670 bases of DNA from Escherichia coli (GCF_003334385.1 NZ_QOWN01000154.1), one strand, 5' to 3'. Shown: positions 2-295, counted from the first letter of the stretch. Made by a program: numbers and translations. The notes: generated by a model from the letters alone, not told the origin.

Positions 2-295
2 TACTCGAGGGAATTAGCCGATGCGAGAGCTGAAAATGAAACTCTGCGCGCTGACGTTGCCGCTGGTCGTAAGCGCCTGCGGGTCAACGCCACCTGCCCC
101 GGTACCGTGCGTGAAGCCACCGGCACCTCCGGCGTGGATAATGCAACCGGCCCCCGACTGGCAGACACCGCTGAACGGGATTATTTCACTCTCAGAGAGC
201 GGTTGATGCTGATGCAGAAGCAGCTGGAAGGGGCGCAGGAATATATCCGCACTCAGTGCACTAAGCTGGCTTTTTATTATCCGGAGGATATATGA
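2..295 (+). CDS. Rz: Rz i-spanin (inner-membrane spanin subunit), C-terminal portion; 5' end lies upstream of the window
   Basis: Frame 2 is open from position 2 to TGA at 293-295. My translation is YSRELADARAENETLRADVAAGRKRLRVNATCPGTVREATGTSGVDNATGPRLADTAERDYFTLRERLMLMQKQLEGAQEYIRTQCTKLAFYYPEDI. From memory this aligns closely with the C-terminal half of lambda Rz (...KELADAKAENDALRDDVAAGRRRLHIKAVCQSVREATTASGVDNAASPRLADTAERDYFTLRERLITMQKQLEGTQKYINEQCR), including both periplasmic Cys positions. The track ORF 107..295 is only the internal-Met part of this frame. Confidence 0.9.
   Translation, partial: YSRELADARAENETLRADVAAGRKRLRVNATCPGTVREATGTSGVDNATGPRLADTAERDYFTLRERLMLMQKQLEGAQEYIRTQCTKLAFYYPEDI
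7..11 (+). promoter_or_regulatory. Shine-Dalgarno-like GAGGG for Rz1, located inside the Rz coding sequence
   Basis: GAGGG lies 9 nt upstream of ATG at 21. This spacing fits translation initiation of the embedded gene. Confidence 0.5.
21..206 (+). CDS. Rz1: Rz1 o-spanin, outer-membrane lipoprotein, embedded in the +1 frame of Rz
   Basis: Track ORF MRELKMKLCALTLPLVVSACGSTPPAPVPCVKPPAPPAWIMQPAPDWQTPLNGIISLSESG (61 aa). From memory it resembles lambda Rz1 (MLKLKMMLCVMMLPLVVVGCTSKQSVSQCVKPPPPPAWIMQPPPDWQTPLNGIISPSERG). It has a hydrophobic signal peptide, a lipobox V-S-A-C with Cys at codon 20 (nt 78-80), Gly at +2 (no inner-membrane retention Asp), and a proline-rich mature part with a conserved internal Cys (PVPC). 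A GAGGG Shine-Dalgarno at 7-11 lies 9 nt upstream of ATG 21. The true start could instead be ATG 36 (MKLCAL...). Confidence 0.86.
   Translation: MRELKMKLCALTLPLVVSACGSTPPAPVPCVKPPAPPAWIMQPAPDWQTPLNGIISLSESG
274..282. repeat. Left copy of an exact 9-bp direct repeat TTATTATCC
   Basis: An identical 9-mer recurs at 523-531. This copy lies immediately 5' of the SD of the small ORF, within the 3' tail of Rz. Confidence 0.35.
283..288 (+). promoter_or_regulatory. Shine-Dalgarno GGAGGA for the downstream small ORF, inside the last codons of Rz
   Basis: GGAGGA at 283-288 is followed by ATG at 292, a short 3-4 nt spacing. ATG 292-294 overlaps the Rz stop TGA 293-295 (ATGA), a typical translational-coupling arrangement. 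Confidence 0.5.

Follow-up and report, generated by a model that had tools for sequence, protein, structure and literature searches.

Loss of a stop codon as the probable source of a nine-residue C-terminal extension in a lambda-type Rz spanin of Escherichia coli prophages

The stretch of Escherichia coli DNA analysed here, called the window throughout, is 670 bases long and contains the end of an Rz gene, an embedded Rz1 gene, a reading frame designated ORF74, and 154 nt of non-coding DNA, with all of its features on the plus strand. Rz, the i-spanin gene, is represented by its 3' part, comprising the last 97 codons and the stop (positions 2 to 295, read in frame 2, with the stop TGA at 293-295), and translation of this region gives ...LEGAQEYIRTQCTKLAFYYPEDI before the stop. 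Rz1, the o-spanin lipoprotein, is a reading frame of 61 amino acids at 21-206 with the lipobox LVVSAC, nested in the +1 frame of Rz. ORF74, at 292-516 with its ATG at 292-294, encodes a conserved protein of 74 amino acids belonging to phrog_2571, a family of unknown function. An Rfam scan of the window gave no match at E values up to 1, and a promoter scan of the window found no promoter-like site. A terminator scan returned two weak terminator-like hairpins within ORF74, not meaningfully above those in shuffled sequences.

The window is 100% identical to part of a prophage of E. coli SW070917, in which the full Rz gene encodes 164 amino acids (L001:3801-4295). Rz lies there in a lysis cassette, in the order class II holin, lysozyme, inserted genes, Rz, and is followed by ORF74, a TonB-like gene, an HNH gene, and terminase genes. 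The interruption of this cassette (L001 1090-3799) includes a truncated ydfR-like pseudogene after the holin gene, as well as a KilAC antirepressor gene and three tiny reading frames between the lysozyme gene and Rz. At another locus (L333) holin, lysozyme, and Rz are contiguous. In E. coli strain G8 (NZ_CP060057.1, 2192987-2194432), an IS1A element has inserted into the region that matches the window, splitting it in two.

The assignment of this Rz to the lambda family is straightforward. The protein matches PHROG 13, "Rz-like spanin", with E=3.1e-77, residues 1-155 aligning to positions 1-154 of a 154-position profile. The profile is exhausted at residue 155 of 164, and the C-terminal tail described below lies beyond it. 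All 120 listed Rz homologues carry PF03245, and Rz1 matches phrog_3198, likewise "Rz-like spanin", with E=1.6e-30. Outside the window, the full Rz gene encodes a hydrophobic N-terminus, VLCVVIIVMLVACGVLSLGL. An AF2 model of full-length Rz, of low confidence overall (mean pLDDT 63), has helices at residues 2-87 and 122-158; residues 155-164 have pLDDT below 50 within this poor model. By profile match, by the nesting of Rz1, and by position in the lysis cassette, Rz and Rz1 are here a lambda-family spanin pair.

The original prediction was that Rz continues at its C-terminus past the lambda-like end, and both translation and an alignment of homologues bear this out. The protein ends ...QEYIRTQC-TKLAFYYPEDI, with the Cys codon at 257-259, eleven codons at 260-292, and the stop directly after them; no in-frame stop occurs between 269 and 292. 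The tail thus begins at 260, two nucleotides before the position 262 first proposed. Lambda Rz (J02459) has 153 amino acids and does end in QKYINEQCR, as first stated, and in the protein alignment the Cys codon at 257-259 corresponds to lambda Rz C152. The tail makes this Rz ten residues longer than lambda Rz and nine longer than its closest short relatives, which end in ...TQC-LK, LN, IN, or IK. An alignment of 28 sequences, of the kind proposed for finding where similarity ends, shows similarity running through QC and two further residues, after which the long forms add nine.

Past the conserved QC, the 120 close homologues fall into two classes. Those of the short class, of about 155 amino acids, have one or two residues after QC (LK, LN, IN, LR, TN, IP, or R). 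Those of the long class, of about 164 amino acids, have eleven, with the ends TKLAFYYPEDT/I, TKLAFYYPENA, TKQAFYYPEDV/T, IKLSFYYPEDI, IKQTFYYPEDI, and IKQAFYYPEDV. The first two residues of the tail, Thr-Lys (260-265), match the usual last two of the short relatives (IK, IN, LK, LN), and the true addition is therefore the nine residues LAFYYPEDI. Of 5,426 complete E. coli genomes, 557 contain the exact 43-nt junction with CTG, as in the window. The tail is confirmed as real and is not an artefact.

The relatives that carry ORF74 show what this added sequence corresponds to. Sufficient flanking sequence was available for 118 viral-contig loci with ORF74, representing 56 haplotypes. In these, the stretch from CAGTGC or CAGTGT through ATGA never changes in length, varies by substitution alone, and takes the forms QCIN-TAG, QCIK-TAG, QCTK-CTG, QCTK-CAG, and QCIK-CCG. 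Eleven representative junction types align without gaps over 71 columns. The C-type junction reads CAGTGT ATT AAC TAG TAT TTT TGT TAT CCG GAG AAT GCA TGA, so that Rz ends QCIN, and the B-type reads CAGTGC ATT AAG TAG TCT TTT TAT TAT CCG GAG GAT GTA TGA, so that Rz ends QCIK. The window form reads ...ACT AAG CTG GCT TTT TAT TAT CCG GAG GAT ATA TGA (QCTKLA...), another form has ...ACT AAG CAG GCT... (QCTKQA...), and a further one ...ATT AAG CCG ACT... (QCIKPT...). The decisive column is the codon at 266-268, CTG (Leu) in the window and TAG, TTG, CAG, CTG, or CCG among the relatives. In the short forms TAG is followed by an untranslated spacer of 23 nt, gaplessly collinear with the tail codons of the window, and the eight codons for AFYYPEDI (269-292) correspond to this spacer between Rz and ORF74. 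The Shine-Dalgarno sequence is kept in all junction types, as GGAG or GGGG. Salmonella prophages, in which ORF74 is 64% identical and stands behind an Rz that is 32% identical, keep QCIK-TAG and the 23-nt spacer. Phages without ORF74 stop at the same codon, with CTG AAA or AAC and then TAA, among the matches listed.

One further variant was seen in H-19B (L338, AF034975.3, 401-973), where a 1-nt deletion lies in GGAGGATGT, in the Shine-Dalgarno region. The annotated Rz of this phage has 190 amino acids and runs out of frame into ORF74. The deletion is either real or an old sequencing error.

We conclude, with a probability of about 85%, that the Rz tail is a stop-loss extension, that is, the translated former spacer before ORF74. 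The ancestral Rz would have ended with TAG two codons past the conserved Gln-Cys, followed by a 23-nt spacer containing a T-run and a Shine-Dalgarno sequence, and then by the ATG of ORF74. In the lineage of the window the stop would have been lost by substitution, most simply from TAG to CAG to CTG, with ribosomes then reading through the spacer to the first in-frame stop past the lost one, the TGA that overlaps the start of ORF74 as ATGA. Rz would in this way have gained nine residues, LAFYYPEDI, encoded by the translation-initiation region of ORF74. A different candidate event, a 4-nt deletion of CTGA relative to phage 1720a-02 that would have put the stop out of frame, was dropped, as the ORF74-bearing short forms give a gapless series of substitutions.

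Because a stop at codon 266-268 is common to all outgroups, the sense codons found there are taken to be derived, a direction of change read by outgroup parsimony rather than by a formal recombination-aware reconstruction. We infer the order TAG to CAG to CTG (or CCG), with TAG to TTG as a separate change. The TTG of the IKLS forms lies one base away from TAG on the exact TAG-TCT background, and the CAG, CTG, and CCG series lies on GCT or ACT backgrounds; two independent stop losses are therefore the simplest account, and the long forms probably arose at least twice. The opposite polarity would make the long form ancestral and derive the short ORF74-linked forms from a nonsense mutation restoring the canonical length of Rz. 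The steps from CAG to TAG and from TTG to TAG are indeed single ones, and canonical length could be favoured, but the stop stands at the same codon in the QCIN (C-type), QCIK (B-type), Salmonella, and ORF-less (TAA) lineages, that of lambda comes one codon earlier, and several independent nonsense changes at one codon would be needed. We regard this polarity as highly improbable.

The stop-loss reading also settles how far the end of Rz was shaped by its neighbour. The original prediction was that the junction with the downstream unit had remodelled the 3' end of Rz. The tail does stem from the region where Rz and ORF74 meet, but the joining did not itself remodel Rz, as versions of this junction that keep the stop are no less common. 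The junction appears to be old and usually to retain its stop, with the tail arising from a later point substitution in that stop.

A 9-bp direct repeat, TTATTATCC, brackets a 249-bp unit that includes ORF74; its left copy (274-282) lies inside the Rz tail, as first described, and its right copy is at 523-531. Two copies were found in none of 200 shuffled sequences. In phage 1720a-02, which lacks ORF74, identity with the window stops after CAGTGC (259) and restarts at ATGCGC (532), where homology with ORF-less phages resumes directly after the right copy, and only CTGAACTAAGTTTTGCTG lies between the two equivalent points. A tail made directly by the recombination or insertion that brought ORF74 to Rz, with the repeat marking the junction, would account for both the limits of identity and the flanking repeat. 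It would not account for the hundreds of genomes, and the Salmonella prophages, in which this junction still has its stop. Moreover, TAA G TTTTG of the ORF-less phages still aligns with TAG TA TTTTTG of the ORF74-bearing ones, and since the stop and T-run are alignable in both, the module boundary must lie downstream of the old stop. A direct origin of the tail in such an event is the least credible of the alternatives, and we give it almost no weight. Derivation of the ORF-less form by deletion between the 9-bp repeats was also considered; it predicts ...CTTTTTATTATCCATGCGC, and ...GTTTTGCTGATGCGC is observed.

The space from the Rz stop to the non-coding stretch at 532-670 behaves as a cargo slot. 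This non-coding element is highly conserved in ORF-less lambdoid phages and has a more distant counterpart in lambda at about 46870-47010, beyond bor. The distance from the Rz stop to the element is 18 nt in phages of the 1720a-02 type and about 440 nt in lambda, and ORF74 occupies the interval here. A third setting was seen in an E. coli genome (L330 1440-1504, GCA_002109925.1), in which 442 nt separate a different, complete Rz from an ORF74 homologue (62% identity) downstream of it. In front of this homologue are a relic of about 45 nt of another Rz 3' end and the spacer, with TCG at the position of the stop. This relic suggests that the Rz 3' end, spacer, and ORF74 moved as one unit and have been together for a long time.

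Among the viral-contig matches listed and the E. coli records matched, the tail always comes in company with ORF74. The 15-mer TTTTATTATCCGGAG adjoins an Rz end in 51 viral contigs among the matches listed, and ORF74 follows in all 51; the other 70 matches listed are unrelated chance matches. A query consisting of the tail and the first 54 nt of ORF74, run against the 5,426 complete E. coli genomes, was covered over at least 80% of its length by every one of 707 records. All long-tail proteins that were traced to their contigs are followed by ORF74 with the ATGA overlap. The original prediction had named as its counterexample an Rz gene that has the tail without the downstream reading frame, and none was found among the viral-contig matches listed or the 707 E. 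coli records.

Constraint at the protein level was assessed by pairwise comparison of 30 long haplotypes. The ratio pN/pS is 0.18 in the Rz-only codons at 209-259 and 0.51 in ORF74, and in the tail (260-292) it is about 4 (pS 0.019, pN 0.077), a value that comes from 11 codons and related haplotypes and is indicative only. So read, it points to an absence of purifying selection and not to positive selection. Apart from one synonymous change, the tail varies as T/I, L/Q/P, A/T/S, D/N, and T/I/V/A, and four different sense codons occur where the stop used to be. The claim that the tail is not functional spanin sequence fits these data in that no sign of selection appears and variation falls almost entirely at amino-acid-changing sites, and the tail may well have no role in spanin function.

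The F-Y-Y-P-E core is invariant in all 30 long haplotypes, and constraint acting on the protein would look just like this. However, the nucleotides of the core, TTT TAT TAT CCG GAG, which make up the 15-mer used above, are equally present in the B-type QCIK-TAG junction, where they are untranslated. Since the core is kept where it is not translated, its conservation needs no explanation at the protein level, and may reflect recent common ancestry or nucleotide-level constraint on the initiation region of ORF74. This bears directly on the proposal that the tail has a function in the i-spanin and was selected for it, acting for example through a C-terminal contact between Rz and Rz1, the stability of Rz, or the timing of lysis. 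Besides the unchanged core, such a proposal could draw on the abundance of long forms, which include inducible Stx phages and H-19B, on their probable origin on at least two occasions, and on work in lambda, limited to truncations, in which the extreme C-terminus of Rz was sensitive and mattered for complex formation (PMC5295617). Set against it, in addition to the untranslated core, are the variable positions, all but one of which change the amino acid, with Leu, Gln, or Pro at the former stop; the roughly half of otherwise near-identical prophages that do without the tail; and Rz1, which differs by only a few substitutions between the window and the short-tailed 1720a-02. A selected role for the tail in the spanin is, on balance, decidedly unlikely. 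We favour the view that the nine residues are a passive and tolerated addition to the periplasmic end of Rz, close to its contact with Rz1, and that they are probably disordered and have no spanin role.

The same nucleotides serve the start of ORF74. The Shine-Dalgarno sequence GGAGGA (283-288) lies inside the Rz coding sequence, where it is read as part of Pro-Glu-Asp, and the ATGA overlap occupies 292-295; the presence of this site and of the ORF74 start within the tail had been correctly foreseen. A hairpin is predicted at 271-298 in which the T-run, which forms the F-Y-Y codons, pairs with the AUG region of ORF74 and the Shine-Dalgarno sequence lies at the loop. It can form in all 11 junction types, that of Salmonella included. 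One might suppose that the stop loss was selected for the sake of ORF74, turning a pair of genes spaced by 23 nt into one overlapping by ATGA, so that ribosomes finishing Rz melt the hairpin, reinitiate, and raise ORF74 expression or tie it to late lysis expression. The overlap, the internal Shine-Dalgarno sequence, the hairpin with the ORF74 AUG in its stem, and the seemingly recurrent loss of the stop all suit this idea. Covariation in the hairpin, however, was no better than in shuffled alignments (115/500), and the fold z-score was only -1.8. Furthermore, a ribosome terminating at 266-268 would already cover the 5' arm, which makes coupling plausible in both forms. Selection of the stop loss for coupling therefore seems to us very unlikely. 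Under the stop-loss reading, the main mechanistic effect, if there is any, would be that termination of Rz coincides with initiation of ORF74, giving tighter translational coupling.

ORF74 itself was found only in prophages of E. coli and Salmonella. Its AF2 model is an all-beta fold with pLDDT 89.6, for which a fold search gave no significant match in PDB or BFVD. A phmmer search with ORF74 gave weak matches over multiple stretches to repeats in giant proteins (5740, 4672, 1113, 835, and 599 amino acids), and a Pfam search with a repeat-containing relative of ORF74 returned nothing significant. ORF74 may correspond to one unit of a domain that is repeated in large surface proteins.

Long and short alleles are both common. 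Among complete E. coli genomes, the CTG junction is present in the 557 mentioned above, the C-type TAG in 601, and the B-type TAG in 18. A 100-nt search of the 5,426 complete genomes gave about 150 further records in the band of 90-95% identity; the two inspected were a CAG long form from O157:H7 and a B-type TAG short form, and the band is thus mixed. The CAG form is present in the inspected Stx2a and Stx1a converting phages Stx2_95, Stx2_EH2201, and Stx1a_11KH263 and in H-19B, and the CTG form in three phage records, all partial. ASU11, a phage induced with mitomycin, is short-tailed. Overall, about half of the ORF74-bearing E. coli prophages, Stx phages included, carry the long form.

An allele this stable and widespread argues against a strong defect, and the long form of Rz is at least tolerated. 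Spanins are dispensable under many laboratory conditions, and the wide spread of the long allele is accordingly weak evidence of function. A broader proposition is that the stop loss was not neutral, having arisen at least two times and spread by an advantage, whether through coupling of ORF74 to late lysis-gene expression or through an FYYPED tail that tunes the Rz-Rz1 complex or the stability of Rz. We consider it unlikely.

The chief value of these results is in correct annotation and interpretation. The 164-residue "lysis protein" that recurs across hundreds of E. coli genomes, and in Stx-converting phages among them, is an unexceptional Rz of the lambda type, and its last nine residues are translated spacer and no new spanin domain. 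The tail should neither serve to define a family nor be taken to show that the gene is recombinant. The locus offers a clean natural case of a stop codon decaying to several sense codons (TAG, CAG, CTG, CCG, TTG) and of protein encoded by a ribosome-binding site. In addition, it is a natural test of how far the end of Rz tolerates a C-terminal extension, which complements the published truncation data for lambda. Among the papers searched, none joins an i-spanin with a C-terminal extension.

Gene lengthening by the shift or loss of a stop codon is well known in prokaryotes, and the stop-loss extension described here is an event of this ordinary kind. It shares with the general case the substitution in the stop codon, translation of the 3' flank as far as the following in-frame stop, and a tail under weak constraint. 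It differs in that the new stop overlaps the start of the next gene, and in that the translated flank is the ribosome-binding region of that gene. Another close comparison is with the short-tailed prophages and phages that carry ORF74, such as phage ASU11, PPyecE_EH1910, and the Salmonella prophages. Spacer sequence and length, Rz, and ORF74 are in these as in the window, but they keep TAG where the window has CTG, and their 23 nt before ORF74 remain untranslated.

In lambda, the cargo ("moron") slot downstream of Rz is occupied by bor. The resemblance lies in the variable content of the space that leads from the Rz stop to the non-coding element. ORF74 differs in lying on the same strand as Rz and directly behind it, with no promoter-like site of its own in the window, and it is unrelated to lambda Bor.

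The Rz/Rz1 pair of lambda is also among the closest known systems. Both systems belong to the PHROG 13/PF03245 family, with 67% identity over the common length of Rz; both have Rz1 nested in the +1 frame, both conserved Cys residues, and the lysis-cassette setting of holin, lysozyme, and Rz. In lambda, E150 of Rz pairs with R59 of Rz1, and loss of Q151 or C152 abolishes function, but the residue following C152 is dispensable (PMC5295617). At the positions of E150 and R59 the present proteins have a polar pair, Thr in Rz and Ser in Rz1, which fits the charge-to-polar covariation reported in the same study (PMC5295617). Rz has 164 amino acids here and 153 in lambda, with eleven residues past the Cys equivalent to C152 as against one, and its reading frame closes within the start codon of the gene that follows, whereas lambda Rz has a free stop.
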